This document shows, one piece after another, positions 1 through 15,524 of a DNA stretch of 15,524 bases (position 1 is the first letter of the stretch; each line of letters begins with the position of its first letter). Source of the DNA: a virus (Duplodnaviria > Heunggongvirae > Uroviricota > Caudoviricetes). Location of the stretch: positions 1 to 15,524 of IMG/VR virus record IMGVR_UViG_2645727555_000007, one strand, 5' to 3'. A program made the position numbers and the translations under genes. The notes beneath the pieces were generated by a model that made no database searches, had not been told where the DNA came from, and saw only the letters and a list, made by a program, of their open reading frames with translations.

Positions 1-35
1 TGGCGGCTGGATCCGTCAAGGATCCGTGCGTGCAC

Positions 36-60
36 AAAAAAACGCGCTTTTTCTGCGCGC
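36..60 (-). terminator. Candidate intrinsic terminator read on the minus strand (GC stem CGCGC/GCGCG, 7-nt loop, followed by a 7-U tract)
   Basis: Plus strand reads AAAAAAA-CGCGC-TTTTTCT-GCGCG; on the minus strand this is a hairpin followed by UUUUUUU. It lies about 330 nt downstream of the portal stop. The stem is short (5 bp), hence low confidence. Confidence 0.3.
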
Positions 61-113
61 AGGTGACGGGGGAACAGCCCGCGTTTCAGGGGGTAAATAG
101 TATTCCCTGAGCG

Positions 114-128
114 ATGTCGCAGCGACAT
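114..128. promoter_or_regulatory. Perfect 15-bp palindrome ATGTCGC-A-GCGACAT (possible dimeric protein-binding site)
   Basis: Read directly; 7-bp arms around a single central base, too tight for a hairpin loop, so operator-like. Confidence 0.2.
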
Positions 129-147
129 AACAGAATGGCCATCTTTC

Positions 148-162
148 TCACGCTGAGCGTGA
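148..162. promoter_or_regulatory. 15-bp palindrome TCACGC-TGA-GCGTGA
   Basis: Read directly; 6-bp arms with a 3-nt centre, about 34 bp from the previous palindrome. Confidence 0.2.
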
Positions 163-339
163 AAAAGATGTGAGGGCTTTTGATTTGATGGGGTGAAAGG
201 TAAGGCCGTCAAAATCGCACTGAGGCGGTGAGAACATGCAGTCAGCGCGGTGGGATTGCGTAAGAGTCTGACCGTCGATGATGGTAATAAACAGGAAAGC
301 GTCGTGAAATTATCTGATTGATACAGGAGCTGGAGAGTC

Positions 340-362
340 GGGGCATAAATTTTTTATGCCCC
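340..362. other. Strong stem-loop GGGGCATAAA-TTT-TTTATGCCCC just 3' of the portal gene
   Basis: 10-bp perfect inverted repeat with a 3-nt loop, about 28 nt past the Q stop (minus strand). No U-tract follows on either strand, so it is not a classical intrinsic terminator. Confidence 0.35.
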
Positions 363-389
363 GCCGAAGCAGCAGACAAGCGAAGCGCG

Positions 390-1436
390 TCAGGATGTGG
401 GCTGGGTGTCTAACAGTGCGTAAGGGTTAAAGCGAATCACCTCTTCGCCAAGCCAGTCATTGATGTGCTTCATGGCCTCCATGACGGGCATCAGCTCGTT
501 AATTGCGTAAACCCGCGCGGCCTTCTCCACATCACCAAACGCACTTTTTTCGCCTGGCATCGCCCCCATCAGTTGCGGCGGAACGCGGTGCGCAGCCAGC
601 ACATCATCACGGGATGCCACCTTAACATTCATGAACTCATCCTTTGCGGTGATCTGCTGGAACGGCAAAATTTGCACCCCCTCTTTGCCACCGTTGGGCG
701 CATGAATGAGCACGTTTTTAAACGCACCACCACCACGCGCACCCTGTAGCGTTTCTTTCAGGGAGTCCATGCTTTCGCGGTTTACCTGCGCTGCACCGAT
801 GTAGATGATGCACCCGGCGTGGGATCCGTTGTCGTAATACAGTTTTCTGAACATGTCCGCCGAATGAGACAGGCTGGCCGAGAGTAATGCGCCGAGATAT
901 TCCGGCATGCCGTAGATTTCCTGGTTAATGTCAGGATTCATCAGGTGGCACACTTTGCCAGGGCGAAACTGAAACGCGTCCTTGCCATCCTGCACATACC
1001 ACCATGATTCAAGATCGCTTCCGCGTCGCATGTATTTCGCCAGGGCGTGCCGTAATTTAAGCGGTTCGCCGAGCATATTGCTTCGAAGCTCAAGGAATGC
1101 GTTACCGAACACAAACCAGTCCAGCGCCAGCGCCGAGAAATCCTGCCGGGAAAGCAACGGGTGCGGGATGTAGCAACCGAGTAATACATTGCGCTTAAAG
1201 TAAAGCGCAGACTGATGCCAGGACGTTTGCCGGGCAGCTCTTGCCAGACCGTACCAGTCCACCGGGGCTTCATACCACCGCCCGTTATCAGCACAGTACA
1301 TATTGTCCAGCAGGTCATGCCCGGTCAGGCGATAAGGACCATCAAATGTGAATGCACTGAGCGATGATTCTTTCCTGAGCGCATCAGCGAGATCAATGCG
1401 TGAACTCATGCGCACTTTTTTATTTTTTCTGCTCAT
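390..1436 (-). CDS. Q: Portal (capsid portal vertex) protein, P2 gpQ-like
   Basis: 348-aa ORF, portal-like by size and sequence character, placed directly after the terminase ATPase gene on the same strand as in P2. Its start overlaps the P stop (ATGA). The exact start is uncertain (an internal Met lies 9 codons in). Confidence 0.85.
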   Translation of the reverse strand: MSRKNKKVRMSSRIDLADALRKESSLSAFTFDGPYRLTGHDLLDNMYCADNGRWYEAPVDWYGLARAARQTSWHQSALYFKRNVLLGCYIPHPLLSRQDFSALALDWFVFGNAFLELRSNMLGEPLKLRHALAKYMRRGSDLESWWYVQDGKDAFQFRPGKVCHLMNPDINQEIYGMPEYLGALLSASLSHSADMFRKLYYDNGSHAGCIIYIGAAQVNRESMDSLKETLQGARGGGAFKNVLIHAPNGGKEGVQILPFQQITAKDEFMNVKVASRDDVLAAHRVPPQLMGAMPGEKSAFGDVEKAARVYAINELMPVMEAMKHINDWLGEEVIRFNPYALLDTQPTS

Positions 1437-3187
1437 CAGAACTCCATAACCGTGAAACGCTCGTTTTCTCCTTCGCCGCCAATTGGTTCGTTAATGACAG
1501 CAAGCATGGTTGCCCACGCAAGGTCGCCGTGGCTGATCCCCCTCGCGCGGTCCGTTTCGTAAGTGATAAAGCCGCCCGGTGTTTTCACCTTACGCACGGC
1601 GTTAAAGGCCGCGACCAGCTCGCGTTCGGCGCGATCGTATTCCCACCGCCCGGCACGCATTATTTGCAGCATTTTCAGTACCAGCGACCGTTTTGATGAC
1701 AGCGTGAAGGTGTACGGAATAGCGGCAGGGAAAAACCGTTTCACTATCTGATAAACAGCCTCCCCGTTCCCGCCCGTCACATCAATGCCGATGTGTTCCA
1801 CGTTGTAGCGACACGTGAACTCTTCAATGACTCTGGCCTGTTCTTCAAACTCCAGCCCCTGAACGCGTCGCGTCTCCACCGTTCGAAAACGGCCACCAGG
1901 AACAGACGGAGGAACCACCACGGACACAGCGCCGCTGTCGCCGTTGCCACTGCTGCCGTTTGCGTCATACCCAATCCATACCGGACGATTCCCCATCGGG
2001 CGGGGAGCAAAAGGTTTCCAGTCTTTCCAGTCGTCGTATCCGTCAACACCGCAGCCAATCAGGATATTCAGGTTAAATGCCGATTCCCCTTCGCGGACAA
2101 ACTCACACATATAGAGATTGAGGAACTCGTCTTCGGTGTTTTCATCACGAATTTCGTCGATATCGGTGTGTTCCCAGCCGTGATTAACCACATCTTCCAG
2201 CGTGACAATTTGCCGCCACGTCCGGTCAGGGCAGATAAGCCCGTTATGCAGCGTTTTCCAGTCCACAGAAAAACGCTGGCGTTTATGCGTGGCCTTTTTC
2301 TCGTTCCAGCGGTCGCCGTTCCAGTAGGCGTATGCCTCGTGCGTTTCGGTGGATGGCGTGGAGAAGTAGGTGCGCCGCAGTCCGCTGAGGGTTGCCATAG
2401 CGCCAGCCACCTTGCGCAGTTCAGCAAAGCGACTGACCCAGAAAAATTCATCAAAATAAAAATTGCCCGTATAGGACTGTGCCGACGCAGCAGAAGTGCC
2501 GAGAAAATGCAGCTCTGCGCCGTTGGAGAGGATGATTTTATCGCCCCCTTTCAGCTCCACATCAACTTCAGCCGCGGCCTTCTGAATAATGCTTTTAAAC
2601 TGGAACGCCTGACGACGCGACGCAGACAAAAAAATCTGGTTACGCTGGTAAGGTTGCGCCACATCGTCACGCAGCGCCATCAGCAGCGCTTCCTGTGCAA
2701 AATACCAGGTCGCCCCAATCTGTCGGGATTTCAGGATCATCCTGTTACGTATCCCTGCTTCCCTGCAAAGGGTCAGGGAGTCAAACCAGCCCCGCTGATG
2801 CCACTCCAGCCTGCTGATGATTTTTTCCCGCAGTGCGGCAATCTGTTCCGGCGTGAAATGATTTTTAAGCTTTTTCGCCCGGCCTTTCTTTCCTGTGGCC
2901 GTCGCATCCGGCTGGCCATCATGCAGTTTTTTAAGCTGCCGGGCCAGCAGGTCTATTTCCTTGAAGTCACCACCTGTTTTATTCTGTTTTTCAGTGAGCT
3001 GGATGAGGCGCGCATCGATGGACTGCGTGACACGCTGCACGGGTGGCATTTCATCCCACTGGTCGCGTTTTTTCCACGCATAAATCGTGTTCGGGTTTAT
3101 TCCCATCAGACGTGATATTTCTGCGGGCGGATAACCCTGCCAGTAAAGTTGCCGCGCACGCTGGCGCACAAAAGCGTCCTGAATCAT
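1436..3187 (-). CDS. P: Terminase large (ATPase) subunit, P2 gpP-like
   Basis: 583-aa ORF (P2 gpP is about 590 aa), divergently oriented to the capsid operon as in P2, with terminase-like N-terminal and nuclease-like C-terminal sequence character. Confidence 0.9.
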   Translation of the reverse strand: MIQDAFVRQRARQLYWQGYPPAEISRLMGINPNTIYAWKKRDQWDEMPPVQRVTQSIDARLIQLTEKQNKTGGDFKEIDLLARQLKKLHDGQPDATATGKKGRAKKLKNHFTPEQIAALREKIISRLEWHQRGWFDSLTLCREAGIRNRMILKSRQIGATWYFAQEALLMALRDDVAQPYQRNQIFLSASRRQAFQFKSIIQKAAAEVDVELKGGDKIILSNGAELHFLGTSAASAQSYTGNFYFDEFFWVSRFAELRKVAGAMATLSGLRRTYFSTPSTETHEAYAYWNGDRWNEKKATHKRQRFSVDWKTLHNGLICPDRTWRQIVTLEDVVNHGWEHTDIDEIRDENTEDEFLNLYMCEFVREGESAFNLNILIGCGVDGYDDWKDWKPFAPRPMGNRPVWIGYDANGSSGNGDSGAVSVVVPPSVPGGRFRTVETRRVQGLEFEEQARVIEEFTCRYNVEHIGIDVTGGNGEAVYQIVKRFFPAAIPYTFTLSSKRSLVLKMLQIMRAGRWEYDRAERELVAAFNAVRKVKTPGGFITYETDRARGISHGDLAWATMLAVINEPIGGEGENERFTVMEF

Positions 3188-3341
3188 TGCTCCCCCTGAG
3201 TAATTACAGGAAGATTACCCGCGCGCGAAACTGTTCTCCTTAACCCCCTGTTCTGGCTGTTTTCTTACAACAAAAGCCCTTTGTATCAGCCTGTTACGCT
3301 TTGCCATCATGACTGAAGAACCAGTCAGAGGGGCAAAAACT
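3188..3341. promoter_or_regulatory. Divergent late-promoter region between P (leftward) and O (rightward)
   Basis: Only sizeable intergenic gap between the divergent Q-P and O-N-M-L operons, which is where P2 has its PP/PO Ogr-activated late promoters. It contains a CTGTTCT direct repeat (3231-3237 and 3248-3254). No perfect TGT-N12-ACA activator dyad was found by eye. Confidence 0.4.
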
Positions 3342-4178
3342 ATGGCTAATGAAAAAAAGACATCCCGCAAAAAGTTTCGCGTGGCTGTCTCCGGTGTAAC
3401 GGCAGACGGGCGCGAAATCAACGGCGACATGCTGAAAGCTGCCGCCACCAGTTATAACCCGTCCGTTTATGGTGCACGTGTGAATATTGAGCACATCCTG
3501 TCACCACTCCCCGGTAGCGAGTTTTCCGCTATGGGCGATGTTGTGGGGTTGAGCACCGAAGACATAACCGATGGCCCGCTGGCAGGCCGCACGGCACTGT
3601 ATGCCGAAATTGAGCCGACCGCTCGCATGATGTCCCTGCTTAACGATGGTAAAAAAATTTACTCCAGTATTGAGCTGGAACCACAGTCAACCATCACGGG
3701 AGGCCCTTACCTGCGCGGGCTGGCAATGACCGACACCCCTGCCAGCCTGGGCACGGAACGTCTGGCCTTTGCGGCACAACAACGTATGCAACTGATGACA
3801 TTCAACTGTCAGCAGGGAGACGTGGCGATGTTTACCGCCGCTATGGAGTCAGAACTTATCGAACTCACCGAACAACGTCAGGAAGAAGGCACCCAGTGGT
3901 TTAACCGCGTTATGGGGATTATTGGCCGTGGCCGCAAAGCGGATGACGCCAGTTTCTCCCGTATTCAGGAAGCGGTGGAAGGTGTCGCAACGTCACAGGC
4001 CGACATTATCGACCGTTTTAATGCGCTGGAAACCCGCCATCAGCAGGACAGCCAGAAAATCACTTTACTGACCACAGAGCTGACAGCACTGAAGGAAAAA
4101 CTGCGCACGCAGGACGGCGATCCGCAGAACCGGTTCACCGCAACGGGCGCAGCCTCCGATCAACTGGCTGACTTCTGA
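3342..4178 (+). CDS. O: Capsid scaffolding protein, P2 gpO-like
   Basis: The ORF track starts at 3309, but the ATG at 3342 is preceded by AGAGGGG with good spacing and gives an N-terminus (MANEKKTSRKKFRVAVSGVTADGR...) of the gpO type. Its position before the major capsid gene matches P2. Confidence 0.8.
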   Translation: MANEKKTSRKKFRVAVSGVTADGREINGDMLKAAATSYNPSVYGARVNIEHILSPLPGSEFSAMGDVVGLSTEDITDGPLAGRTALYAEIEPTARMMSLLNDGKKIYSSIELEPQSTITGGPYLRGLAMTDTPASLGTERLAFAAQQRMQLMTFNCQQGDVAMFTAAMESELIELTEQRQEEGTQWFNRVMGIIGRGRKADDASFSRIQEAVEGVATSQADIIDRFNALETRHQQDSQKITLLTTELTALKEKLRTQDGDPQNRFTATGAASDQLADF

Positions 4179-4201
4179 TAAGACAAAGGAGCAAATTTTT
4201 T

Positions 4202-5254
4202 ATGAATCTGGTGATGTCAGATATTACCCGCAACAAGCTGGGTTGCTATATGGCGCAGCAGGCGTCGCTTAACAACATCCCGGTATCTGCACTGGTATCG
4301 CGATTTACCGTGGAACCCTCGGTGCAGCAGCGTTTTGAAAACGCAGTAAAGGAGAGCACTGAATTTACAAAAAAAATTAACGTGTTCGGTGTGACCGACC
4401 AGAAAGGCGAAAAAATCCTCCTGGACACCACCGGGCCGATTGCGCGCACGAATACCAGTTATGACGGCACAAAACGCCGTAACCCGAATAACGTGGTTGA
4501 TCTGAAAAACCGTAAATATCAGTGCGAACAGGTGAACTACGACACGTTTATTTCGTATCCGCAGCTTGATGCCTGGGCGGCACACCCTGATTTTCAGTCA
4601 CGCGTCAGCACACAGATTGCCCGGCAGGTGGCGCTTGACCGCATCATGATCGGTTTCAACGGCACGTCTCACGCAGATGAGTCCAACTTCAGCACCAACA
4701 AGCTGCTTCAGGACGTTAACGTGGGATGGCTGGAGCACATCAGAACCGACGCCAGCGAGCGCGTAATGAATGACGTGACGCTGACCTCCCGCAACATGGA
4801 CAACACCGTGGCGCACGCGGGTAAGTATGCGAACGCTGATGCACTGGTACAGGACGCGCGCTCATCCCTGCTGGATGAATGGCACAAGGAAGCTGACGAC
4901 CTCGTGGTGATTATGGGGCGCAACCTGTTTAACTCGCTGCGTCTGCCCGTGCTGAACAGCATCAGCGGCCAGAATCCCAATGCGGAATTACTTGCCGGAC
5001 AGCTCATCCTGTCATCGCGCGCCATTGGCGGACTGGATGTATTCCTTGCGCCGTTCTTCCCGGATTCAACGATGCTGATCACCTCGTTCAACAACCTGTC
5101 GATTTACTGGCAGAAAGGAACAATGCGTCGCCTGATGAAAGACGAGCCGGAATACAACCGCATCGCCACCTACCAGTCCATCAATGACGCTTATGTCGTT
5201 GAAGACTATGGCAAGTGCGCGATGGTCACTGGCCTGAAGTTCGCCGACAGCTAA
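4202..5254 (+). CDS. N: Major capsid protein, P2 gpN-like
   Basis: 350-aa ORF with AAGGAG upstream and gpN-type motifs (FTVEPSV, GFNG, VGWLE, LVVIMGRNL, VVEDY). It sits between the scaffold and small-terminase genes. Confidence 0.9.
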   Translation: MNLVMSDITRNKLGCYMAQQASLNNIPVSALVSRFTVEPSVQQRFENAVKESTEFTKKINVFGVTDQKGEKILLDTTGPIARTNTSYDGTKRRNPNNVVDLKNRKYQCEQVNYDTFISYPQLDAWAAHPDFQSRVSTQIARQVALDRIMIGFNGTSHADESNFSTNKLLQDVNVGWLEHIRTDASERVMNDVTLTSRNMDNTVAHAGKYANADALVQDARSSLLDEWHKEADDLVVIMGRNLFNSLRLPVLNSISGQNPNAELLAGQLILSSRAIGGLDVFLAPFFPDSTMLITSFNNLSIYWQKGTMRRLMKDEPEYNRIATYQSINDAYVVEDYGKCAMVTGLKFADS

Positions 5255-5263
5255 TCAACTCAC

Positions 5264-5282
5264 GGCGGGCATCATGCCCGCC
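5264..5282 (+). other. Stem-loop GGCGGGCA-TCA-TGCCCGCC immediately after the major capsid gene
   Basis: 8-bp GC-rich perfect stem with a 3-nt loop, 10 nt after the N stop. It is followed by GGAGAG and the M start rather than a U-tract, so it may be an mRNA stability or attenuation element. Confidence 0.4.
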
Positions 5283-5299
5283 TGTAACGGAGAGAAAAA

Positions 5300-6100
5300 A
5301 TGATTACTCCTGCACAGCAACACTGGCAGAACGTGATGGCACAGCGCGCAGGCCGGGCGAATGAAGGCGTGGACCACGCCGCGCGTACCGCGCATGAAGA
5401 GGTGCTGTATCGTCTGCGTCTGGCACAGGCCCGACTTAAGGGCGTACAGGCCAGAAGCGCGAAAGCCGCCATCAAAAAAGAGTTGTTGCCGGACTTTTCC
5501 GGCTGGATTGAGGGAACGCTGGAGGCTGACGGCGGGCAGCAAGATGAAGTGATTGCCACGCTGATGGTGTGGGCAATTGACTGCGGCGATCTTCCGCTGG
5601 CGCTGCGTATTGGTGCGTATGTGGTCCGTCACAACCTCATCATGCCGGATAACTTTGGCCGTACTGCTGCCACGGTACTGACCGAAGAAATCTGTAATCC
5701 GGTACTGACGCAGGCCGGGACGGATGCCGACGCGGATTTGTCCGCCTTTATCGAACCACTGGACACCCTCCGGGAGATTGTCACCGACCAGGACATGCCG
5801 GACGAAGTGCGCGCCAAATTATGCAAGGCGTGCGCCTTTGCCCGTCGTGGCCTGACCGATGCGGACAGCATGGCCTCATCACTGAAGCTGCTGCGCGAAG
5901 CGATGCACCTGAACCCGAACGCAGGTGTGAAACGCGAGATTGCAACCCTTTCCCGCGCCCTGAAAAAAGCCGATTCCGCAGCCGCACCAGAAGATGCCAG
6001 CACACCGCAGGCGCAGGACGAAAGCAGCAAAAGTAAAAAGACAACGCGGAAGCCTACAACACGAAAAACCACCGCGACGCAGAAGGCGAAGCGCGGTTAA
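5300..6100 (+). CDS. M: Terminase small (endonuclease) subunit, P2 gpM-like
   Basis: 266-aa ORF containing MPDEVRAKL and a basic Lys/Arg/Thr-rich C-terminal tail, as I recall for P2 gpM. GGAGAG lies 5 nt upstream. Confidence 0.85.
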   Translation: MITPAQQHWQNVMAQRAGRANEGVDHAARTAHEEVLYRLRLAQARLKGVQARSAKAAIKKELLPDFSGWIEGTLEADGGQQDEVIATLMVWAIDCGDLPLALRIGAYVVRHNLIMPDNFGRTAATVLTEEICNPVLTQAGTDADADLSAFIEPLDTLREIVTDQDMPDEVRAKLCKACAFARRGLTDADSMASSLKLLREAMHLNPNAGVKREIATLSRALKKADSAAAPEDASTPQAQDESSKSKKTTRKPTTRKTTATQKAKRG

Positions 6101-6116
6101 CGACTGACCCCGTCAG

Positions 6117-6188
6117 CGGGCGGCGTGCGCGGTGTTCCGGTTTGACTCCGTGACCGTTTACACCGCACACCCACCGCCCGATTTTTTC
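6117..6188 (+). terminator. Long imperfect hairpin followed by a T-tract in the M-L intergenic region (attenuator or partial terminator candidate)
   Basis: CGGGCGGCGTGCGCGGTG (6117-6134) pairs with CACCGCACACCCACCGCCCG (6161-6180) with a few mismatches, followed by ATTTTTTC and then AGGAG and the L start. Confidence 0.3.
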
Positions 6189-6201
6189 AGGAGTGAACCC
6201 C

Positions 6202-6696
6202 ATGAGTATGGTTGCCAGAACCAACCCCGGCCCCGCAGAGGACGACATCACCGATACCGATGATGGTGATACCCGTATTTCAGCGGGCGCATTCTGGCCG
6301 GATATTGTGCTGCGTGAGCTGCGTCTGGCGATACGACTGCCGGGCCGTGTGACCACCTCCCGCCTGCTGCATACCGCCACCGGGGCCGTGGCACACGTTA
6401 CCCGCGAGCTGAAAGCGTGGCAGCAGGAACAGCAGGCGGCTGGCCATCAGACGCTGGCCGATGTTCCGGCACCCGTAATTAACGGAGAAAGCGTCAATCT
6501 CTGGCACTGGCGCAATGCTGTTTATACCGCCACGCGCGCCCTGATTCTGGAGCGTTATCGTGATGCAGACACAACGGACAAGGGCGACCGCCGGGCGGAC
6601 GCTCTGGATATACAGACATCGGATTTGTGGCGTGATGTGAGCTGGGCCATCTCTGACATTCTGTGCCGCCCGCGAATCTTTGCGGAGTTGTGCTGA
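6202..6696 (+). CDS. L: Head completion/stabilisation protein, P2 gpL-like
   Basis: About 164 aa from the ATG at 6202, which has AGGAG 8 nt upstream (the ORF track start at 6193 is a GTG). Position and size match P2 gpL; its stop overlaps the X start. Confidence 0.8.
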   Translation: MSMVARTNPGPAEDDITDTDDGDTRISAGAFWPDIVLRELRLAIRLPGRVTTSRLLHTATGAVAHVTRELKAWQQEQQAAGHQTLADVPAPVINGESVNLWHWRNAVYTATRALILERYRDADTTDKGDRRADALDIQTSDLWRDVSWAISDILCRPRIFAELC

Positions 6697-6896
6697 TGAA
6701 AGTGAAGGCACTGGAAGGCGACACCGTGGATTCGCTCTGTTTCCGGTACTACGGCACGACGCAGGGCGTCACCGAAAAGGTGCTGGATGCCAACCCCGGA
6801 CTCTGTCAGCAGGTATTTCTGGACGCCGGGCAGGAAGTGGAGATGCCGGAGCCGGAGAAGAAGAAACGAGAAATGATTCAGTTGTGGGGGGAGTAG
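6696..6896 (+). CDS. X: Tail protein X (LysM-like), P2 gpX-like
   Basis: 66-aa product MKVKALEGDTVDSLCFRYYGTTQGV...ANPGL...LWGE, clearly alignable to P2 gpX as I recall it. The track ORF 6663..6896 shares this frame with an upstream alternative start. Confidence 0.8.
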   Translation: MKVKALEGDTVDSLCFRYYGTTQGVTEKVLDANPGLCQQVFLDAGQEVEMPEPEKKKREMIQLWGE

Positions 6897-6898
6897 CA

Positions 6899-7222
6899 GT
6901 GAGCACCATTCAAACAGGGATCACAGAGCAGGTTATTGCGTGGCTCTTTGACCACCTGCCAACGGTGTATGCAGTAGGCGCGGCGGTCAGCATTTCCGCG
7001 CTGATGAGTCTTTATGACGGACGAACACTGGTTCAGACCGTAACGGGATCGCTGGCGTGCGGCGTTCTTGCCATGGCCGTGGCCGGGTCGTTGCGCTTCT
7101 TCGGGTTTCCTGAAGATGCCGTGACGTTTATCGGCGCATCAATCGGTTTTATGGGCGCAGAGAAAGCACGCGACAAGGTTATTGCGGCCTTTAATCGCAG
7201 GGTGAAGGAGAAGGACGAATGA
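6899..7222 (+). CDS. Holin (multi-TM small membrane protein)
   Basis: GTG start with a strong GGGGGAG site 7 nt upstream. The 107-aa product has 2-3 hydrophobic segments and a charged C-terminus (KEKDE), and sits immediately upstream of the endolysin. The track ORF from 6680 is an upstream read-through of the same frame. Confidence 0.65.
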   Translation: MSTIQTGITEQVIAWLFDHLPTVYAVGAAVSISALMSLYDGRTLVQTVTGSLACGVLAMAVAGSLRFFGFPEDAVTFIGASIGFMGAEKARDKVIAAFNRRVKEKDE

Positions 7223-7611
7223 GCAACACATTTAAATTCAGCAGCCGGAGCGAAAAGAATTTGCAGGGCGTAAATCCTGATCTGGTGAAAGTGACCCGAC
7301 GGGCACTGGAAATCTCGGAAGTGGATTTTGGTATCACCGAAGGGTTGCGCAGCCGTTACCGCCAGAAACAACTTGTGGCCACAGGTAAGAGCCAGACCAT
7401 GAACAGCCGCCACCTTACGGGGCATGCCGTGGATGTTGTGGCTTATATCGGCAGCCAGGTGTCATGGGAATGGCCGCTGTACGAAAAAATCGCAGCAGCA
7501 TTCAGACAGGCCAGCCGGGAACTGAATATTCCGGTGGAATGGGGCGGCGACTGGAAGACCCTGAAAGACGGACCGCATTTTCAGTTACCACACGGAGCCT
7601 ATCCGGCATGA
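7219..7611 (+). CDS. Endolysin, peptidase M15 (VanY/L-Ala-D-Glu peptidase)-like
   Basis: 130-aa protein with SRHLTGHAVDV and a later DGPHFQ His, fitting the H-x6-D...H zinc-peptidase pattern of M15-family phage endolysins. ATGA overlap with the holin stop. Confidence 0.7.
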   Translation: MSNTFKFSSRSEKNLQGVNPDLVKVTRRALEISEVDFGITEGLRSRYRQKQLVATGKSQTMNSRHLTGHAVDVVAYIGSQVSWEWPLYEKIAAAFRQASRELNIPVEWGGDWKTLKDGPHFQLPHGAYPA

Positions 7612-8015
7612 AGCTCTGGCCCACGCTGGGCGTCGCTTTCCTTCTGATTGCCGCATGGGGAACATCCATGCGTCTGTCGTGGTCGCTGGGCTGGGAGAAC
7701 GCCAGAAACGAAGCGCAGGCCAGCGCTCTGAAAAGTACCGTCGACACTCTGAATATCATCAGCACCGGGGTACAGGATATGCAGCAGGTGCTGGCGCAAC
7801 TCCGCGTGGAAAATCAACAGCGAAATCAGGACGGAGAGGCCAGACGTGAACAGCTACGCAACGATATTGCAAAAGATGAATGCGCCCACGCTTTGCCTGA
7901 CGCTCGTTTTACTGACAGGTTGCGCAGACACGCAGAACGCGCCACGGCCAGCGCCGTCAGTCCGGCTTATACCGCAGACGCTGACCATACCGGTAACGCC
8001 TCCCCCCTTCCCTGA
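7608..8015 (+). CDS. i-spanin (Rz/LysB-like inner-membrane spanin)
   Basis: ATG at 7608 overlaps the endolysin stop. The product has an N-terminal TM segment (LWPTLGVAFLLIAAWG) followed by a charged, coiled-coil-like periplasmic region. The track ORF from 7464 is an in-frame upstream extension. Confidence 0.7.
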   Translation: MKLWPTLGVAFLLIAAWGTSMRLSWSLGWENARNEAQASALKSTVDTLNIISTGVQDMQQVLAQLRVENQQRNQDGEARREQLRNDIAKDECAHALPDARFTDRLRRHAERATASAVSPAYTADADHTGNASPLP

Positions 8016-8166
8016 CACTCCCACATGGGGAAATCTCGGTATATGGGGCGACCGCCTTCTGGATGCACTGGAAACCTGTAACGCGGATAAACGGGCCATT
8101 GAATTACTGGAACAGCGCAGGCTGCAAAGACTGAACAACGAGGACAACAACCATGCTGAAAACTGA
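7846..8166 (+). CDS. o-spanin (Rz1/LysC-like outer-membrane lipoprotein), overlapping the i-spanin in another frame
   Basis: Signal peptide with lipobox LLTGC, a Pro-rich mature region and a C-terminal Cys. It starts inside the i-spanin gene in a different frame and extends beyond it. The start is GTG 7846 (GGAGAGG upstream) or ATG 7876. Confidence 0.7.
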   Translation: MNSYATILQKMNAPTLCLTLVLLTGCADTQNAPRPAPSVRLIPQTLTIPVTPPPFPDTPTWGNLGIWGDRLLDALETCNADKRAIELLEQRRLQRLNNEDNNHAEN

Positions 8167-8620
8167 TTCCCTGCGTGAAGCCATGACCCGTTCATGCCGA
8201 TGGTGTCAGGCTAACCCGGAAAAATTCACCATTTTCGTGGAGAGCGGCAACATTGAAACGACAGGAGAAACCCCATCGTTTGTTTACCGCTATCAGATGG
8301 TGATGTTTGTCATGGATTACGCCGGGGAGCTGGACGACCTCACGCTGCCGCTGCTGGCGTGGTTATCAGAAAATCAGCCACAGTTGTTGCTCAATCCGGA
8401 GCGTAATCAGGACATCAAATTCTCCGCCGTTATCAATGACGATGACAGCGCCGATCTCCTGTTTACGCTCCCTCTGCGGGAACGCGTTCGCATCACGCGC
8501 AGCAGTCAGGGCACGCCGCAGGCAGAACACCTGCCGGAGCCAAAACCCCGCCTGCCATCTTCCGAAGGCGACTGGTCGCATGTATTCCAGGATGTGACGT
8601 GGGGTGAAAGCGATGGATAA
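8153..8620 (+). CDS. R: Tail completion protein, P2 gpR-like
   Basis: 155-aa ORF, the same length as P2 gpR, in the conserved position after the lysis genes. Confidence 0.8.
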   Translation: MLKTDSLREAMTRSCRWCQANPEKFTIFVESGNIETTGETPSFVYRYQMVMFVMDYAGELDDLTLPLLAWLSENQPQLLLNPERNQDIKFSAVINDDDSADLLFTLPLRERVRITRSSQGTPQAEHLPEPKPRLPSSEGDWSHVFQDVTWGESDG

Positions 8621-9248
8621 GGCATTCACCCGCGTGGATGAAACCTTTGAGGCCATCCGCGACAGCCTGAATCAGCAGGCCATCAATAACATTGCCAGAA
8701 AGCTGGCACAGGATTTACGCCGCGCCCAGCAGGCGCGCATCCGGTCACAGAAAGCGCCGGACGGGACCGCGTGGACACCACGCAGACGCCGCGTAACCCG
8801 GATACAGGAACGCATTCGCTTTATCTGGAATAACGAAGCACGCACGCTGAAAAACTGGCATCACGACACGGGGAAATACGGGCGAACCATTACCGGGTGG
8901 GATGAGGATAAAAATAATATCCGCACGTTTTACCGGGATGACATCGACCGTTTTCTGGAAATACGCACCCGGCGCATCAACCAGGACAGCACAAAGCACG
9001 TCCCCATGTTCGTAAAACTGCGCACCTCCCGCTACCTGAAAGCCCGTGCGGATGCTTCCGGTGTGACGGTGGGTTACAGCGGCGTGGCCGCACGTATTGC
9101 ACGCGTTCATCAGTTCGGTGAGCGCGATCAGGTTGCGCCGGGCATTTTCACCGATTACCCGGTACGTGAGCTGTTGGGCATCAGTCAGGCAGATGAACGC
9201 CTGATTTATAACACGGTGCTGGGCCGGATTGCGGAGGCTGTACGGTGA
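8613..9248 (+). CDS. S: Tail completion / virion morphogenesis protein, P2 gpS-like (longer than canonical)
   Basis: Positional equivalent of gpS, with the ATG at 8613 overlapping the R stop (alternative GTG at 8604). About 211 aa against about 150 for P2 gpS as I recall it. Its stop overlaps the V start. Confidence 0.7.
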   Translation: MDKAFTRVDETFEAIRDSLNQQAINNIARKLAQDLRRAQQARIRSQKAPDGTAWTPRRRRVTRIQERIRFIWNNEARTLKNWHHDTGKYGRTITGWDEDKNNIRTFYRDDIDRFLEIRTRRINQDSTKHVPMFVKLRTSRYLKARADASGVTVGYSGVAARIARVHQFGERDQVAPGIFTDYPVRELLGISQADERLIYNTVLGRIAEAVR

Positions 9249-9826
9249 GCGCAGAACTCATGCGACTGCTGAGCAATATCATCCGCACCGGGATCATCTC
9301 TGAAGTTGATGAGAAGTCCTGGCGCGTGCGCGTTCGCAGCGGCGAACTGGAAACAGGCTGGCTGCGCTGGAACACCACGCGCGCGGGAGCCTTCAATGTG
9401 TGGCTGCCGCCATCACCAGGCGAACAGGTGGTAATTGCCTGCATTGGCGGCAATCCGGAAACCGCCATGATAATTGGCAGCCTGTGGAGTGATGCCAATC
9501 CGGCCCCCGGCAAAAGCCTGAAAGAAATCGTGATCAGCGCGCCGGACGGCGCGGTGTTCCGCTACGACGCGGACGCAGGCGCACTGAGCGCCAGCGGCAT
9601 GAAAACAGCCACCCTGCAGGCATCCGTCAGCGTGACACTGGATACGCCCGTCGTGGAATGCACAGACCTTCTGAGAACAGCGACGATTGACGTCACAAAA
9701 GGAGGAAAGATGAGCGGCAATATCACGCACAGCGGCGGCGATTTCACCTCAAACGGCATCACAGTGCATACGCATAAACACGGTGGCGTTAAAGGTGGCA
9801 GCGATTCGACGGGAGGCCCGCAGTGA
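9245..9826 (+). CDS. V: Baseplate spike/assembly protein, P2 gpV-like
   Basis: GTG start with GGAGG 7 nt upstream. N-terminal NIIRTGIISEVD and C-terminal HTHKHGG...GG match gpV as I recall it. Confidence 0.85.
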   Translation: MSAELMRLLSNIIRTGIISEVDEKSWRVRVRSGELETGWLRWNTTRAGAFNVWLPPSPGEQVVIACIGGNPETAMIIGSLWSDANPAPGKSLKEIVISAPDGAVFRYDADAGALSASGMKTATLQASVSVTLDTPVVECTDLLRTATIDVTKGGKMSGNITHSGGDFTSNGITVHTHKHGGVKGGSDSTGGPQ

Positions 9827-10173
9827 CAACCCGCTACACAGGAATGAATCCGGACGGAACGGGAAACCTGAACGATATGGAGCACCTGAAACAGTCAGTC
9901 AGGGACATCCTGACCACCCCGCTGGCAAGCCGGGTTATGCGACGGGAATATGGCAGCCTTGTGCCCGATTTAATTGACGAACCCATGAATAACACCACAC
10001 GTCTGCAATGCATGAGTGCTGCCGTGATTGCGCTGACACGATGGGAACCCCGCATTGCCCTGGATGCCATCGACGTTGTCTGGAAGGCAGGAGGCCGCGC
10101 CAGGGTGACGCTGTCAGGTACTGTCATGCAGACCATGCAGAATGTTGAATTAACCATCACGCTGAGAGAGTAA
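9823..10173 (+). CDS. W: Baseplate wedge protein, P2 gpW-like (gp25 family)
   Basis: 116 aa (P2 gpW is about 115 aa). GTG start overlapping the V stop, with GGGAGG upstream; conserved position. Confidence 0.85.
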   Translation: MTTRYTGMNPDGTGNLNDMEHLKQSVRDILTTPLASRVMRREYGSLVPDLIDEPMNNTTRLQCMSAAVIALTRWEPRIALDAIDVVWKAGGRARVTLSGTVMQTMQNVELTITLRE

Positions 10174-10176
10174 ATC

Positions 10177-11073
10177 ATGCCCGCCGTTGACCTTTCACAG
10201 TTACCGGACCCCGCCATCATCGCGGAGCCTGACTTTGAGGCAATTCTGGCTGACACAAAGGCCATGATGATTGCGGCTTATCCCGCCGAACAACGTGAAG
10301 CCGTCTCCGCCGCGCTGGAGCTGGAATCGGAACCTCTGAACGTTATCGCCCAGACAACAGCGTTTCGTGAAATGCTGTTACGCCAGCGGGTCAATGAGGG
10401 TGCACGCGCCTGCATGTTAAGCCACAGCGCCGGGACAGACCTGGACAACCTCGCAGGCAATATGAACACAAAGCGCCTGGTTATCACTCCGGCAACGGAT
10501 ACCACCGACGCGGTGATGGAAAGCGACACCTCGCTGAGACTGCGGGCGCAACGGGCGTACGACGGCCTGAGTGTTGCTGGCCCGTCAGGTGCATACGAGT
10601 ATTTTGCCCGCAGCGCCAGCGGTCTGGTGCGTGATGCGCGGGCTATCAGTCCGTCTCCGGCAAATGTGACGGTTTCCATCCTGTCCACTGAAGGCGACGG
10701 CACAGCAACGGAGGCGTTGCTTAATACCGTTCGCGCCGTTCTGAATGCAGAGGATACCCGCCCGGTGGCCGACCGCCTGACCGTACAGAGTGCCAGAATC
10801 GTGACATGGCGGCTGAATGCAAAACTGTACTTTTACCCCGGCCCGGAATCCGAACCTATTCTGGCTGCGGCGGAATCGTCGTTCAGGAAGTGGCTGGCTG
10901 ACCAGGGGCTTATCGGTCAGGACGTGGCGTTGTCCGCCATTGCTGCCGCACTGCATGTGCACGGTGTGCAACGCGTGGAGATAACCGAACCCACACAGAA
11001 TATGGCCATCAGCGACATACAGGCGGCGCGCTGTGAGTCGTTCACCATCAGCGAAGGTGGGCGCAATGAGTAA
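10177..11073 (+). CDS. J: Baseplate assembly protein, P2 gpJ-like
   Basis: 298 aa (P2 gpJ is about 302 aa); conserved position between W and I. Confidence 0.9.
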   Translation: MPAVDLSQLPDPAIIAEPDFEAILADTKAMMIAAYPAEQREAVSAALELESEPLNVIAQTTAFREMLLRQRVNEGARACMLSHSAGTDLDNLAGNMNTKRLVITPATDTTDAVMESDTSLRLRAQRAYDGLSVAGPSGAYEYFARSASGLVRDARAISPSPANVTVSILSTEGDGTATEALLNTVRAVLNAEDTRPVADRLTVQSARIVTWRLNAKLYFYPGPESEPILAAAESSFRKWLADQGLIGQDVALSAIAAALHVHGVQRVEITEPTQNMAISDIQAARCESFTISEGGRNE

Positions 11074-11596
11074 TTCGCTGTTACCACCATCAGCCAGCAA
11101 TTTCATGCGTTGCGCCGAAGCTGTCGGAGCGCGCATTACAAACATCCCGGTAGACCTCAACACACTGTGGTCACCAGATACCTGCCCGGTGCATCTGCTG
11201 CCTTATCTCGCCTGGGCATTTTCCGTTGACCGCTGGGATCGCAACTGGCCGGAAGAGACAAAGCGACAGGTTATTCGTGATGCATGGCTGATACACCGAC
11301 ACAAAGGGACCATCAGCGCACTGCGCCGGGCCATTGAGCCGCTGGGATACCTCATTCGCGTGTCTGAGTGGTGGGAGTTCGGCGGAGAACCGGGAACATT
11401 TACCGTTGAAGTCGGCACGCTGGACAGTGGCGTGACGGAGGAAATGTATCTGGAAATGGAGCGGTTGATTGCTGATGCCCGCCCGGTCAGCCGCCACATG
11501 ACAGGGCTGAATATCATTCAGGAAATTCCGGGGGATATTTTCGCAGCGGCGGCAACTTATGACGGTGAAGTCATTACCATTTATCCGGACGATTAA
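11066..11596 (+). CDS. I: Baseplate/tail protein, P2 gpI-like
   Basis: The ATG at 11066 overlaps the J stop and gives 176 aa, the same as P2 gpI. The track ORF from 11033 is an upstream extension of the same frame. Confidence 0.85.
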
Positions 11597-11598
11597 GC

Positions 11599-14148
11599 AT
11601 GAGTACCACAACACGTAAATTTAAAACCGTTATCACCGATACGGGTGCAAAAAAATTAGCTCAGGCAGCCGCGCCAGATGGTAAGCCTGTCCGCCTGACT
11701 CATATGGCCGTGGGCGACGGTGGCGGCACGTTGCCCACACCAGACAGTAAGCAGACCCGTCTGGTGCATGAGGTGTGGCGACATACTGTTAATCGCGTCA
11801 TCCTGGACGCAACACATCAGAACCGCATTATTGCGGAGCTGGTTATTCCTCCTGAAACGGGCGGATTCTGGATCCGGGAAATTGGTGTATTTGATGAGCA
11901 CGGCGATTTAATCGCGGTGGGCAATACTGCCGAAAGTTACAAGCCAGCCGTTGCCGAAGGGTCCGGTCGTGCACAAACATTTCGCACCATTCTGACCGTA
12001 TCCAGCACTGCCACCGTGGCGCTTACCGTGGATAACACCATGGTGATGGCCACAGTGGATTACGTGGATGACAAACTGAAAGAGCATGAACAGTCACGAC
12101 GTCACCCGGACGCCTCGCTGACCGCAAAAGGCTTTGTTCAACTCAGTAGCGCCACTAACAGCGTGTCTGAAACGCAGGCTGCAACGCCGAAAGCAGTAAA
12201 GGCCGCGTATGATCTTGCTAACGGTAAATATACTGCGCAGGATGCCACCACAGCGCGAAAAGGCCTTGTCCAGCTCAGTAGCGCCACCAACAGCACGTCT
12301 GAAACGCTCGCCGCAACACCAAAGGCAGTAAAAGCAGCCTATGACAATGCTGAGAAACGTCTGCAGAAAGACCAGAACGGTGGCGATATTCCAGATAAGG
12401 GCACTTTCCTGAACAACATTAACGCGGTCAGTAAAACAGACTTTGCTGATAAGCGTGGTATGCGTTATGTGCGGGTTAACGCTCCTGCAGGTGCAATATC
12501 TGGAAAATATTACCCTGTTGTTGTTATGCGTTCTGCTGGCTCAGTAAGCGAACTGGCATCAAGGGTCATTATCACCACGGCAACGCGAGCCGCAGGCGAT
12601 CCGATGAATAACTGCGAGTTTAACGGATTTGTTATGCCTGGTGGCTGGACTGACAGGGGGAGTTATGCTTATGGAATGTTCTGGCAATATCAAAACAATG
12701 AACGAGCCATCCACTCAATAATGATGAGTAATAAGGGCGATGATTTGCGCTCTGTGTTCTATGTTGATGGCGCTGCTTTCCCTGTTTTTGCGTTTATTGA
12801 AGATGGCCTGTCAATATCCGCACCTGGTGCTGATCTCGTTGTTAATGATACGACCTATAAGTTTGGGGCAACAAATCCGGCGACTGAATGTATCGCGGCG
12901 GACGTTATCCTTGATTTTAAGAGTGGCCGTGGTTTTTATGAGTCCCATTCGTTAATCGTTAACGATAACTTGTCGTGCAAAAAACTTTTTGCCACAGACG
13001 AAATTGTAGCGCGTGGTGGTAATCAGATTCGAATGATAGGTGGGGAGTATGGTGCATTATGGCGTAATGATGGCGCTAAAACTTACCTGCTGCTTACCAA
13101 TCAAGGTGATGTTTATGGTGGCTGGAATACATTAAGACCGTTTGCTATTGATAACGCAACCGGCGAACTGGTTATTGGAACCAAACTGTCCGCAAGTCTG
13201 AACGGTAATGCATTAACAGCAACAAAGCTGCAAACGCCAAGACGGGTTTCTGGTGTTGAGTTTGATGGTTCCAAAGATATTACTTTAACCGCCGCGCATG
13301 TGGCTGCTTTTGCCAGAAGGGCAACGGATACATATGCCGATGCGGATGGTGGCGTTCCCTGGAATGCCGAATCAGGCGCTTACAATGTCACCCGCTCTGG
13401 CGACAGCTATATTCTGGTTAACTTCTATACCGGAGTCGGAAGTTGCCGGACCCTGCAGATGAAGGCGCATTACAGAAATGGAGGTCTGTTCTACCGTTCC
13501 TCAAGAGATGGCTATGGTTTTGAGGAAGGCTGGGCAGAAGTTTATACCTCGAAAAATCTTCCACCAGAAAGCTACCCAGTTGGCGCACCAATCCCGTGGC
13601 CATCAGATACCGTTCCGTCTGGTTATGTCCTGATGCAGGGGCAGACTTTTGACAAATCTGCCTACCCGAAACTTGCAGTGGCTTATCCGTCAGGCGTTAT
13701 TCCTGATATGCGTGGCTGGACGATTAAGGGCAAGCCCGCCAGTGGTCGTGCCGTATTGTCTCAGGAACAGGACGGCATTAAATCGCACACCCACAGCGCC
13801 AGCGCATCCAGTACTAATTTGGGGACGAAAACCACATCGTCGTTTGATTACGGAACTAAATCCACAAATAACACCGGAGCACATACACACAACTTTGCTT
13901 ACAACAATACTTCAGCATACGCAGAAACTCCCGGTACCGGTGGTGGAATGCATGCAAGTAACACAAGCAAGACAGCAAGTAATCGTGTATTAAGCGCAGG
14001 AGCTCATGCTCACACAGTAGCAATAGGTGCGCATACACATACGCTCGCTATTGGTTCGCATACACACACCATTACCATTGCCGCTTATGGCAACGCGGAA
14101 AACACCGTAAAAAACATCGCATTTAACTATATTGTGAGGCTTGCATAA
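11599..14148 (+). CDS. H: Tail fibre protein (gpH position): P2-like N-terminus with a lambda Stf / T4 gp37-like His-repeat receptor-binding tip
   Basis: 849 aa. The N-terminal part is of the conserved P2-family H type; the middle has two tandem Phage_fiber_2-type repeats; the C-terminus has HxH motifs and ends ...[18 protein letters not shown], which I recall as the C-terminus of T4 gp37 and lambda Stf. Confidence 0.9.
12124..12345 (+). repeat. Two about 90-bp in-frame direct repeats (period 132 bp) inside H
   Basis: 12124-12213 and 12256-12345 encode (A/R)KG(F/L)VQLSSATNS(V/T)SET(Q/L)[12 protein letters not shown] with only a few nucleotide differences, seen directly. Confidence 0.8.
13999..14079 (+). 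repeat. Three tandem 27-bp coding repeats encoding G(A/S)H(A/T)HT(V/L/I)(A/T)I HxH units in the tail-fibre tip
   Basis: GAHAHTVAI / GAHTHTLAI / GSHTHTITI read in frame. Further HxH motifs lie upstream (KSHTHSA near 13781, GAHTHNF near 13876). Confidence 0.8.
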
Positions 14149-14747
14149 TGGCATTCAGAATGAGTGAACAACCACGAACCATAAAAATTTATAATCTGCT
14201 GGCCGGAACCAATGAATTTATTGGTGAAGGTGATACATACATTCCACCTCATACAGGTCTACCTGCAAATAGTACTGATATTGCTCCGCCAGATATTCCA
14301 GCTGGCTTCGTGGCTATTTTCAACAGTGATGAGGCGTCCTGGCATCTCGTTGAAGATCATCGTGGTAAAACGGTTTATGACGTGGCTTCCGGCGACGCGT
14401 TATTTATTTCTGAACTGGGTCCGTTACCGGAAAATGTTACCTGGTTGTCGCCGGAAGGGGAATATCAGAAGTGGAACGGCATAGCCTGGGTGAAGGATAC
14501 GGAAGCAGAAAAACTGTTCCGGAAACGGGAGGCGGAAGAAACAAAAAACAGCCTCATGCAGGTAGCCAGTGAGCATATTGCGCCGCTTCAGGATGCTGCA
14601 GATCTGGAAATTGCAACGGAGGAAGAAATCTCGTTGCTGGAAGCATGGAAAAAGTATCGGGTATTGCTGAACCGTGTTGATACATCAAGTGCACCGGATA
14701 TTGAGTGGCCTGCTTCCCCAGTGGAATCAAGGAGTAAACAAGCATAA
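14148..14747 (+). CDS. tfa: Tail fibre assembly chaperone, lambda Tfa-like (gpG position)
   Basis: 199 aa beginning [29 protein letters not shown]..., which I recall as near-identical to the lambda Tfa N-terminus. ATG overlaps the H stop. Confidence 0.9.
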
Positions 14748-14840
14748 GGCTTTCATTTCAAACCATTGTAGTCCAGTTTTTTGTATAGTACCCTGCTCAT
14801 TTCGAATGACATGAGTGATTTGGAATTTCAGGGTGCCATT
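14748..14840 (+). promoter_or_regulatory. AT-rich intergenic region upstream of the cargo ORF (possible own promoter)
   Basis: Composition drops sharply here. A TATAGT -10-like hexamer sits at 14785-14790 and AGGG at 14830-14833 precedes the ATG at 14841. No convincing -35 at standard spacing. Confidence 0.2.
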
Positions 14841-15488
14841 ATGAATGTTATTTCATCATTAAAACAGCTTAACAGACAGCGAAATATTAAAACAAAAAAG
14901 ATAAAGACGAAGGCCAGACTGGCATTTCTAAAAATGCGATACAGAAGGAAAACATCATTACAGCCGGATAGTTATAAAACAGTGTGCATTTTCATGCACA
15001 TGCAGGCCATTGGTGACGGCATCGTTACCTCAGGGTTTATTAAACAACTTCAAGAATCCGGCATGGTGGTATATGTGATAGCACCTCCAAGAGTATCATT
15101 CCTCTTTACTGATATTGTTGGCGTGGATGCCTTTATTTCTTACGAGAAAAATAAATTTAACGAACTAAAAGCAAAGATAAAAAAACTGAATGTAGATCTT
15201 GTTGTTGACTTCTCAAATTTTGATAACACAGCGATAACCAGATTGCAAACACTACATTTACTTAAACCTAAACACTCTATCTGTTTTAATCATCCTGCCG
15301 TAACTATTTTTGATACAAATATAATCGATAATCGTTCCATTCACTCATCTGAAAGAATGAAAAAAGTTTTATCTTTACTAAAGATAAAAAATAATGATTA
15401 CGCTGCAGCGCTTAATTTTGACAACAAAATATATCGAGTAGGCAGCCTGACGGCTGCGGCTTGTCATGGTCTGCAATTACCGTTATAA
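14841..15488 (+). CDS. AT-rich cargo ORF at the P2 Z/fun-equivalent position: GT9 (heptosyltransferase-family)-like N-terminal Rossmann domain protein, function unknown
   Basis: ORF track 14781..15488 starts at TTG; the ATG at 14841 with AGGG upstream is the more likely start (about 215 aa). Roughly one-third GC by eye against over half in the structural genes. A Lys/Arg-rich N-terminal stretch is followed by KTVCIFMHMQAIGDGIVTSGFIKQLQESGMVVYVIAPP...NVDLVVDF, matching the GD...LK..FP...DxLV pattern of GT9 N-terminal domains (WaaC/WaaQ-like) from memory. Confidence 0.5.
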   Translation: MNVISSLKQLNRQRNIKTKKIKTKARLAFLKMRYRRKTSLQPDSYKTVCIFMHMQAIGDGIVTSGFIKQLQESGMVVYVIAPPRVSFLFTDIVGVDAFISYEKNKFNELKAKIKKLNVDLVVDFSNFDNTAITRLQTLHLLKPKHSICFNHPAVTIFDTNIIDNRSIHSSERMKKVLSLLKIKNNDYAAALNFDNKIYRVGSLTAAACHGLQLPL

Positions 15489-15524
15489 AAACAGGCAATG
15501 TCATTGTCTTTCAGGTGGTTATAT

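Follow-up and report, generated by a model that had tools for sequence, protein, structure and literature searches.

The stretch of DNA analyzed here, which we call the window, comprises 15,524 nucleotides of a tailed phage (IMG/VR virus record IMGVR_UViG_2645727555_000007) and closes with an AT-rich open reading frame (ORF) lying just past a tail fiber assembly gene (tfa). This raises the question of what kind of gene a P2-like prophage carries in this place, whether the gene is complete and what its product would do. Judged by alignment with intact relatives, positions 14841 to 15434 are the 5' half of a glycosyltransferase family 9 (GT9) gene that is cut by an IS66-family insertion sequence (IS) after codon 198, at the junction between two Rossmann domains. 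The reading that we favor, and that we hold to be rather likely, is that the window carries the IS-split 5' half of a single-gene cargo, the intact enzyme of which most likely modifies the core of lipopolysaccharide (LPS).

The interruption of the gene is evident when the end of the window is compared with other genomes. A megablast search of region 14700-15524 against 5,426 complete Escherichia coli genomes recovered the GT9 gene in 49 of them, with every match ending at window position 15434-15438, and matches to the whole window in E. coli likewise end at 15434. The first 198 codons are 99.9% identical to a 392-residue "glycosyltransferase family 9 protein" encoded by a 1179-bp gene, and the alignment to intact loci shows agreement through AAAATATAT (15434) and complete divergence after it. 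The remaining 90 nt (15435-15524; 46.7% GC) match 236 E. coli records at up to 98% identity, mostly plasmids of enterotoxigenic E. coli (ETEC), where the same 90 nt adjoin an interrupted IS3 transposase gene and then IS66-type tnpA-like, tnpB and tnpC ORFs. Because divergence sets in at one point, to within about 2 nt, in two independent flanks, we identify 15435-15524 as an IS66-family terminus; this terminus is contiguous with the tnpA-like/tnpB/tnpC trio and is present at independent insertion sites, as befits a member of that family. The copies on the ETEC plasmids are themselves truncated, and the right inverted repeat and the exact name of the IS are not definable from them.

The insertion also explains the ORF that had been seen as running alone to the end of the window. 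As called mechanically, this ORF extends from a TTG at 14781 to 15488 and does stop 36 nt short of the window end, but it is drawn from two sources, first the GT9 gene and then the end of the IS. All homologs of the GT9 gene start at the ATG at 14841, and from there the chimeric product consists of 198 native and 17 IS-derived residues (RVGSLTAAACHGLQLPL). Since the whole C-terminal nucleotide-sugar-binding domain is gone, the window copy is inactive as a GT-B transferase, which shows it to be a pseudogene rather than an active transferase. The features of this region, all on the plus strand, are as follows.

14148-14747, plus strand: tail fiber assembly gene gpG/Tfa, 199 amino acids, the upstream border of the cargo slot (ORF; "tail fiber assembly protein" in homologous loci; Caudo_TAP domains).
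14748-14840, plus strand: intergenic leader of the cargo gene, AT-rich with 38.7% GC (composition).
14841-15434, plus strand: codons 1-198 of the WaaU-like GT9 gene (392 amino acids when intact), comprising the N-terminal basic helix and the whole N-terminal, acceptor-side Rossmann domain (99.9% identity to L001 6142-6735 / WP_001594315.1).
14847-14939, plus strand: codons 3-33, a long Lys/Arg-rich N-terminal helix (model and family conservation; common to K-12 WaaU).
15012-15017, plus strand: codons G58-D59, Gly-Asp pair of the N-terminal domain and candidate catalytic-base motif of GT9 (invariant in 34 sequences).
15435-15524, plus strand: IS66-family terminus of about 90 bp, with a boundary uncertain by about 2 nt (98% identity to E. 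coli records).
15435-15488, plus strand: IS-derived ORF tail, 17 codons (RVGSLTAAACHGLQLPL) and a stop (translation against the intact protein, and DNA alignment).

In draft assembly GCA_001297725.1 the window makes up all of contig DF970300.1 (15,524 bp), which runs out 90 nt into the IS66-family repeat, as is typical of contig breaks that repeats cause. One could instead take the junction at 15434/15435 for an assembly artifact at a contig end, with the gene intact in the real genome, given that a whole short-read-style draft contig ends here 90 nt into a multi-copy repeat and that the junction of GT9 gene and IS is seen in none (0/5426) of the complete E. coli genomes searched. We consider this improbable, as contigs normally stop in repeats since the repeat truly adjoins the unique sequence, and as the break falls exactly at an IS terminus that is fixed by an independent insertion site, which is not expected of a random chimera. 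In this window, then, an IS has inactivated the gene, and its apparent ORF end, like the partner genes once imagined beyond the edge, is an artifact of a contig break inside a repeat.

The foreign character of the gene is plain from its composition. Specifically, GC content falls to 33.8% over 14748-15434 versus 54.4% over 1-14747 (z = -5.5), the lowest value in any other 687-bp window is 44.0%, and the coding part (14841-15434) has 33.0% GC overall and 30.8% at third codon positions. This bears out the switch in GC directly after the tfa stop that the sequence-only reading had described; its statement that GC is over 50% upstream is correct for the prophage overall but not for tfa itself, which has 46.8%.

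We also compared the slot that this gene occupies across related prophages. In P2 the gene order is H, G, a terminator, fun(Z) on the minus strand and then FI-FII-E-T-U-D on the plus strand. The window belongs to a common lineage, the gpU type of which we found in 1,404 of the 5,426 E. coli genomes. Seven loci of this lineage were inspected (L014 28296-35138; L001, L004 and L017 to L020), and in each of them the FI-FII-E-E'-T-U block occupies one strand and H-G and gpD-ogr the other, whereas in P2 a single strand carries them all. This inversion of the FI-U block leaves the slot between tfa and a convergent gpU, away from the sheath gene, and the placement of the cargo at a junction with the tail sheath (FI) must be given up for this lineage. 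A scan for inverted repeats around the inverted block returned only short pairs at chance level. We also observed a 93-bp partial ORF between FI and gpD, and that gpD is annotated at only 266 amino acids.

The closest relatives of the window are 96-99.9% identical across its whole length and form a complete prophage at the btuC-ihfA site, continuing past the cargo into gpU, tape measure, tube, sheath, gpD and ogr. These relatives also bear on whether the gene belongs to the LPS-core region of the host, with the prophage truncated at this point. Some homologs are indeed chromosomal waa-cluster genes, and in strain L6-21 the GT9 gene lies in a degraded prophage remnant adjoining host genes. However, the intact relatives run on into phage tail genes and not into host waa chromosome, and the K-12 waa cluster is without a copy, the nearest gene there being the distant homolog WaaU; we therefore find a host gene at a truncated prophage end scarcely credible.

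Within the lineage the contents of the slot are polymorphic. Apart from the 49 genomes with the GT9 gene, a serine-O-acetyltransferase-family gene fills the slot between tfa and gpU in a prophage remnant of O157:H7 strain TW14359 (L017 4291-4863), and by its family this gene is another candidate surface-glycan modifier. In two further loci (L018 2512-4979 and L019 2343-4976) the slot holds an inverted second tfa and fiber tip together with a Cin/Hin-type recombinase, which is an invertible host-range module, and in an ST131 strain it holds a small hypothetical gene. This agrees with the literature, in which the Z/fun hotspot between tail genes is described with mixed cargo that includes fiber swaps and invertases (bioRxiv 10.1101/2024.10.15.618418), and in which a tail-gene hotspot accounts for 16% of P2 defense systems (PMC13586616); Rousset et al. 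2022 place the principal defense hotspot at gpA-gpQ, away from the tfa-gpU slot (PMC9122126). Thus, the low GC, the differing slot contents of relatives and the published hotspot all uphold the view of a foreign cargo in a variable P2-like slot after the tail fiber assembly gene.

The sequence-only reading had further suggested that the gene might be one component of an uncharacterized multi-gene anti-phage defense system with partners past the window edge. That the slot is a recognized secondary hotspot with defense-like cargo in P2-like phages lends this some appeal. However, intact prophages have no other gene beside it between tfa and gpU, a search of PADLOC-DB v2 gave zero matches at E <= 1, what lies beyond the window edge is an IS66-family element, and the chromosomal homologs (described below) are located in LPS and O-antigen clusters and not in defense islands. 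The defense view thus appears to us very unlikely, and we return to the single-gene cargo.

The way in which the cargo entered the slot can be read in part from the neighboring fiber genes. At window positions 13992-14718, a span with the fiber tip and most of tfa, identity to stfR/tfaR/tfaQ of lambdoid prophages is 89-92%, and it ends about 30-37 bp before the tfa stop. The tfa type of the window is present in 4,235 of the 5,426 E. coli genomes, almost all of which are without the GT9 gene. A tfa 3' end thus seems to have come in together with the GT9 cargo, and these alignments suggest entry by recombination within the conserved Tfa C-terminus. We also considered transfer of fiber tip, tfa and glycosyltransferase together as one cassette and rejected it, as Providencia Tfa is only 44% identical to the Tfa of the window and as the tfa type mostly occurs without the GT9 gene. 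Many copies of this prophage lineage are decaying, like the copy in the window. Related prophages often carry other ISs (IS3-family, IS903B, IS30) or fused or partial structural genes (L004 28743-29971, L002 4448-5416 and L017 2657-3660).

We next turn to the identity of the intact protein, whose product name at NCBI is "glycosyltransferase family 9 protein". The Pfam family PF01075 (Glyco_transf_9) scores 27.0 bits on the intact homolog against a gathering threshold of 22, over residues 205-312 only, and the 198-residue fragment of the window gives no Pfam match, the region that carries the GT9 signal being beyond the IS breakpoint. Among NCBIfam models the intact protein has only far-sub-threshold matches to RfaQ and HepI (22-23 bits versus cut-offs of 185-467), and among PHROGs it matches phrog_36326, which is listed there with function unknown and whose profile begins at residue 52. 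A phmmer search of PDB sequences returned only chance matches to hnRNP-L, and the family profile against PDB reached only WaaC, at E 0.07 and over the DT..HL motif. Sequence searches of PDB being uninformative, we used fold comparison and hhalign against the K-12 enzymes.

For the intact protein, an AlphaFold2 model computed from 34 family members has a mean predicted local distance difference test score of 90 and a predicted template modeling (TM) score of 0.86. The model shows a GT-B fold with two Rossmann-like domains, in which residues 3-33 form a helix, strand beta-1 occupies 47-51, the domain boundary lies near residue 196 and residues 371-392 are a disordered tail. The intact protein thus has full GT-B architecture, of which the window copy retains the N-terminal domain only. 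The top Foldseek matches in PDB are 3tov, WaaC (6dfe, 2gt1, 2h1h) and WaaF (1psw), with E values of 1.8e-13 to 2e-11 and TM scores of 0.6-0.7. When the family profile is aligned to K-12 enzymes with hhalign, the match to WaaU is by far the strongest (probability 99.4%, E 7.9e-22, 307 columns, 21% identity) and spans from residue 21, inside the basic helix, to the C-terminal WxPN motif, covering both GD and DTxxxHL. The matches to WaaQ (E 4.8e-7, beginning at residue 58), WaaC (E 1.7e-5, 48 columns only) and WaaF (E 1.2e-3) are weaker, and this stronger full-length homology to WaaU places the family on a WaaU-like branch. The profile search and the structure prediction with Foldseek that had been proposed thus do find a GT9 relationship for the intact protein. 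The N-terminal Rossmann core of a GT9 glycosyltransferase that was read from the window is supported at the level of the family by Pfam, Foldseek and hhalign, but the fragment alone does not reveal it to Pfam.

Conserved residues point in the same direction. V290, D291, T292, V295 and H296 are invariant in the 34 members and align to VDTGLSHL of WaaC, and this motif is missing from the window copy. G58-D59 is also invariant in these members, is aligned with the GD of WaaU and WaaQ and is kept in the window copy; we take it to be the equivalent of WaaC Asp13, the putative catalytic Asp. In the basic leader N11, R12, N15, K19, K22 and R35 are at least 90% conserved among the 34 members, and most of the best 150 of the representatives listed align from profile positions 1-10. 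The Lys/Arg-rich leader that had been called unusual is therefore real and conserved at six positions, and it is common to WaaU and to most of the sub-family. In strain ETEC1746 (L014 27180-28199) the GT9 gene is annotated at 1020 bp (339 amino acids) with a start downstream of the basic leader. This short annotation and the PHROG start at residue 52 look like start-codon mis-calls or a lesion of the leader, because the leader is conserved and includes strand beta-1 (47-51).

The protein glycosyltransferases offer a different fold relative. In that case the intact enzyme would be an autotransporter heptosyltransferase of the TibC/Aah type, or a modifier of the adjacent tail fiber, a view favored by the constant location of the prophage genes beside tail fiber or Tfa genes and by the presence of TibC (4rap) among the fold matches. 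However, TibC ranks only 33rd, with E 1e-5 and a TM score of 0.42, far weaker than WaaC, WaaF and 3tov (E 1e-11 to 1e-13). The 34-member alignment contains no invariant Cys, and thus no TibC-style four-Cys iron finger, and several chromosomal members are located in waa or O-antigen clusters with no fiber or autotransporter gene nearby. We accordingly regard protein glycosylation as unlikely, and an LPS-core enzyme remains the reading that we prefer.

The genomic settings of other family members fit, on sequence context, an LPS-assembly enzyme that phages have captured as an accessory on repeated occasions. When 1.84 billion representatives were searched exhaustively with HMMER, 119 matched the sub-family at E <= 1e-30 and 749 at E <= 1e-10. 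Members were sampled from Gilliamella, Orbus, Zophobihabitans, E. fergusonii, Pectobacterium and Succinivibrio, and each bears just the name "glycosyltransferase family 9 protein". One member (L011) lies inside a canonical waa cluster with the order GT9, GT4, Kdo/WaaP-type kinase, GT4, GT8, GT8, the family gene, WaaA, CoaD, GT2, MutM and rpmG/B. O-antigen-type clusters hold two others (L012 and L013), which adjoin asmA-dcd-udk and occur together with wzx, Wzy_C and sugar-nucleotide genes, and the Orbus member (L007) adjoins a GT2 gene, a homologous GT9 gene and two EptA-like sulfatase-family genes. One member (L010) is a lone island.

Among prophages the setting is again constant. In P2-like prophages of E. 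coli the GT9 gene follows tfa and is the sole gene between tfa and gpU in intact loci, in Providencia prophages with E217/PhiTE-like tails (L005, L008 and L023) the family gene comes directly after tail fiber or Tfa genes, and in a Providencia prophage with a Mu-like baseplate (L009) it comes directly after fiber/Tfa genes and is followed by convergent GT2, DinI and integrase genes. Capture directly downstream of tail fiber/Tfa genes is therefore seen in no fewer than three prophage lineages of the myovirus type that are unrelated to each other (P2-like, E217/PhiTE-like and Mu-like). In a phage-like contig (L024) the family gene follows a Gp10_C-domain protein. A megablast search of the region against 50,697 phage records gave no match. 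With tblastn, distant homologs in phage records appeared only in two Campylobacter phages, at 23% identity over 81% of the protein (MG065691.1 142249-143205 and MG065686.1 30918-31874); these are the lytic phages A11a and A18a, of about 174 kb, in unannotated records. A GT2 gene directly adjoins the family gene both in the Mu-like Providencia prophage (L009 7144-8118) and on the Orbus chromosome (L007 11134-12111), a hint that the two enzymes may act as a unit in adding two sugars.

From these relationships a mechanism can be proposed for the intact 392-residue enzyme. It would be located peripherally at the cytoplasmic face of the inner membrane, where its basic N-terminal helix and N-domain would engage the anionic lipid A-core acceptor. 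Its reaction would then extend the LPS core by a side-branch sugar, for which heptose donated by ADP-heptose, as with WaaU, is the likeliest candidate, and the changed surface receptor could result in lysogenic conversion or in exclusion of LPS-binding phages. In K-12, transfer of the fourth heptose onto outer-core GlcIII has been attributed to WaaU (PMC4483631). Prophages that have the gene intact probably remodel, by its product, the cell-surface LPS to which phages bind. If the gene is expressed only late, with the fiber operon, the benefit could be that of keeping progeny off debris.

Several observations weigh against the reading of an IS-split gene for an LPS-core enzyme. Only one IS junction lies within the window and the 3' half of the gene is outside it, which makes a mis-join at the contig end conceivable, if hardly probable. 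Scans of the plus strand for sigma-70-like promoters upstream of the GT9 gene and for terminators after tfa found nothing above shuffled expectation, and expression in the lysogen, which conversion needs, is only predicted; transcription by read-through from the late tail fiber operon is possible, and the gene may be expressed only late with that operon. The link of the sub-family to LPS is likewise a prediction, RefSeq calls K-12 WaaU itself "putative", and donor and acceptor are not readable from a protein that is only 21% identical to WaaU. In the literature searched, we met with no paper that treats this protein family.

The repeated placement beside receptor-binding genes allows a further and more tentative proposal, one that we would put at somewhat less than even. 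WaaU-like GT9 genes may travel with receptor-binding modules, such that a core side-branch sugar stops the lysogen, or debris of the lysing cell, from binding the fiber of the phage itself or the fibers of competing phages that bind the LPS core. The LPS core is the receptor of P2-type and many other coliphages, and known prophage glycan modifiers act mostly on O-antigen; to our knowledge no prophage-borne enzyme acting on the LPS core has been characterized. If true, the proposal would describe a core-level counterpart of O-antigen seroconversion that is physically coupled to the fiber gene whose receptor gets edited. Remodeling of surface glycans by prophages decides phage adsorption, the readout of serotype or core type and the behavior of phage therapy or typing panels.

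Among known systems the closest is K-12 WaaU (b3623; formerly RfaK), the putative ADP-heptose:LPS heptosyltransferase IV. The two share a full-length profile match that includes the basic helix, GD, DTxxxHL and WxPN motifs, they are similar in length (357 versus 360-392 amino acids for the family), and the family member in the waa cluster of L011 holds the equivalent place, at the end of the outer-core gene block next to waaA. They differ in that identity is about 21% and in that the gene of the window is prophage-borne, is not in a waa cluster and is truncated by an IS. The other core heptosyltransferases, WaaC, WaaF and WaaQ (CAZy GT9, PF01075), share the GT-B fold and provide the best structural matches, with Pfam GT9 above threshold and with the nucleotide-sugar motif DT..HL of the family aligned to WaaC residues 235-279. 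In contrast, their sequence similarity is very weak, and the basic N-terminal helix of the family, of about 45 residues, has no aligned counterpart in them, the matches starting at residue 58 or later. TibC/Aah (BAHT) is set apart by the absence of an invariant Cys from the family, and thus of the four-cysteine iron finger, and by its weak structural match.

With respect to phage accessory genes, P2 fun(Z) resembles the GT9 gene in occupying the corresponding variable slot after the tail fiber assembly gene G, but the two are not similar in sequence (best BLASTP E 3.7) and are opposite in orientation, and the slot of the window's lineage is bounded by gpU. The gtrABC genes and O-acetyltransferases of temperate enterobacterial phages are surface-glycan modifiers of lysogenic conversion. 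They differ from the GT9 gene in that GT9 enzymes are of the cytoplasmic core assembly class, such that the likely target is the LPS core and not the O-antigen repeat, with a role that is predicted. Glycan-modifying accessory genes of prophages are thus already known, and a WaaU-like, core-acting GT9 gene beside fiber genes appears to be uncharacterized among them. The resemblance to these modifiers is that the GT9 gene stands singly at the border of the tail fiber module as an accessory of foreign composition, that its family predicts modification of a surface polysaccharide, and that a sister prophage in O157:H7 has an acetyltransferase in the very same slot.

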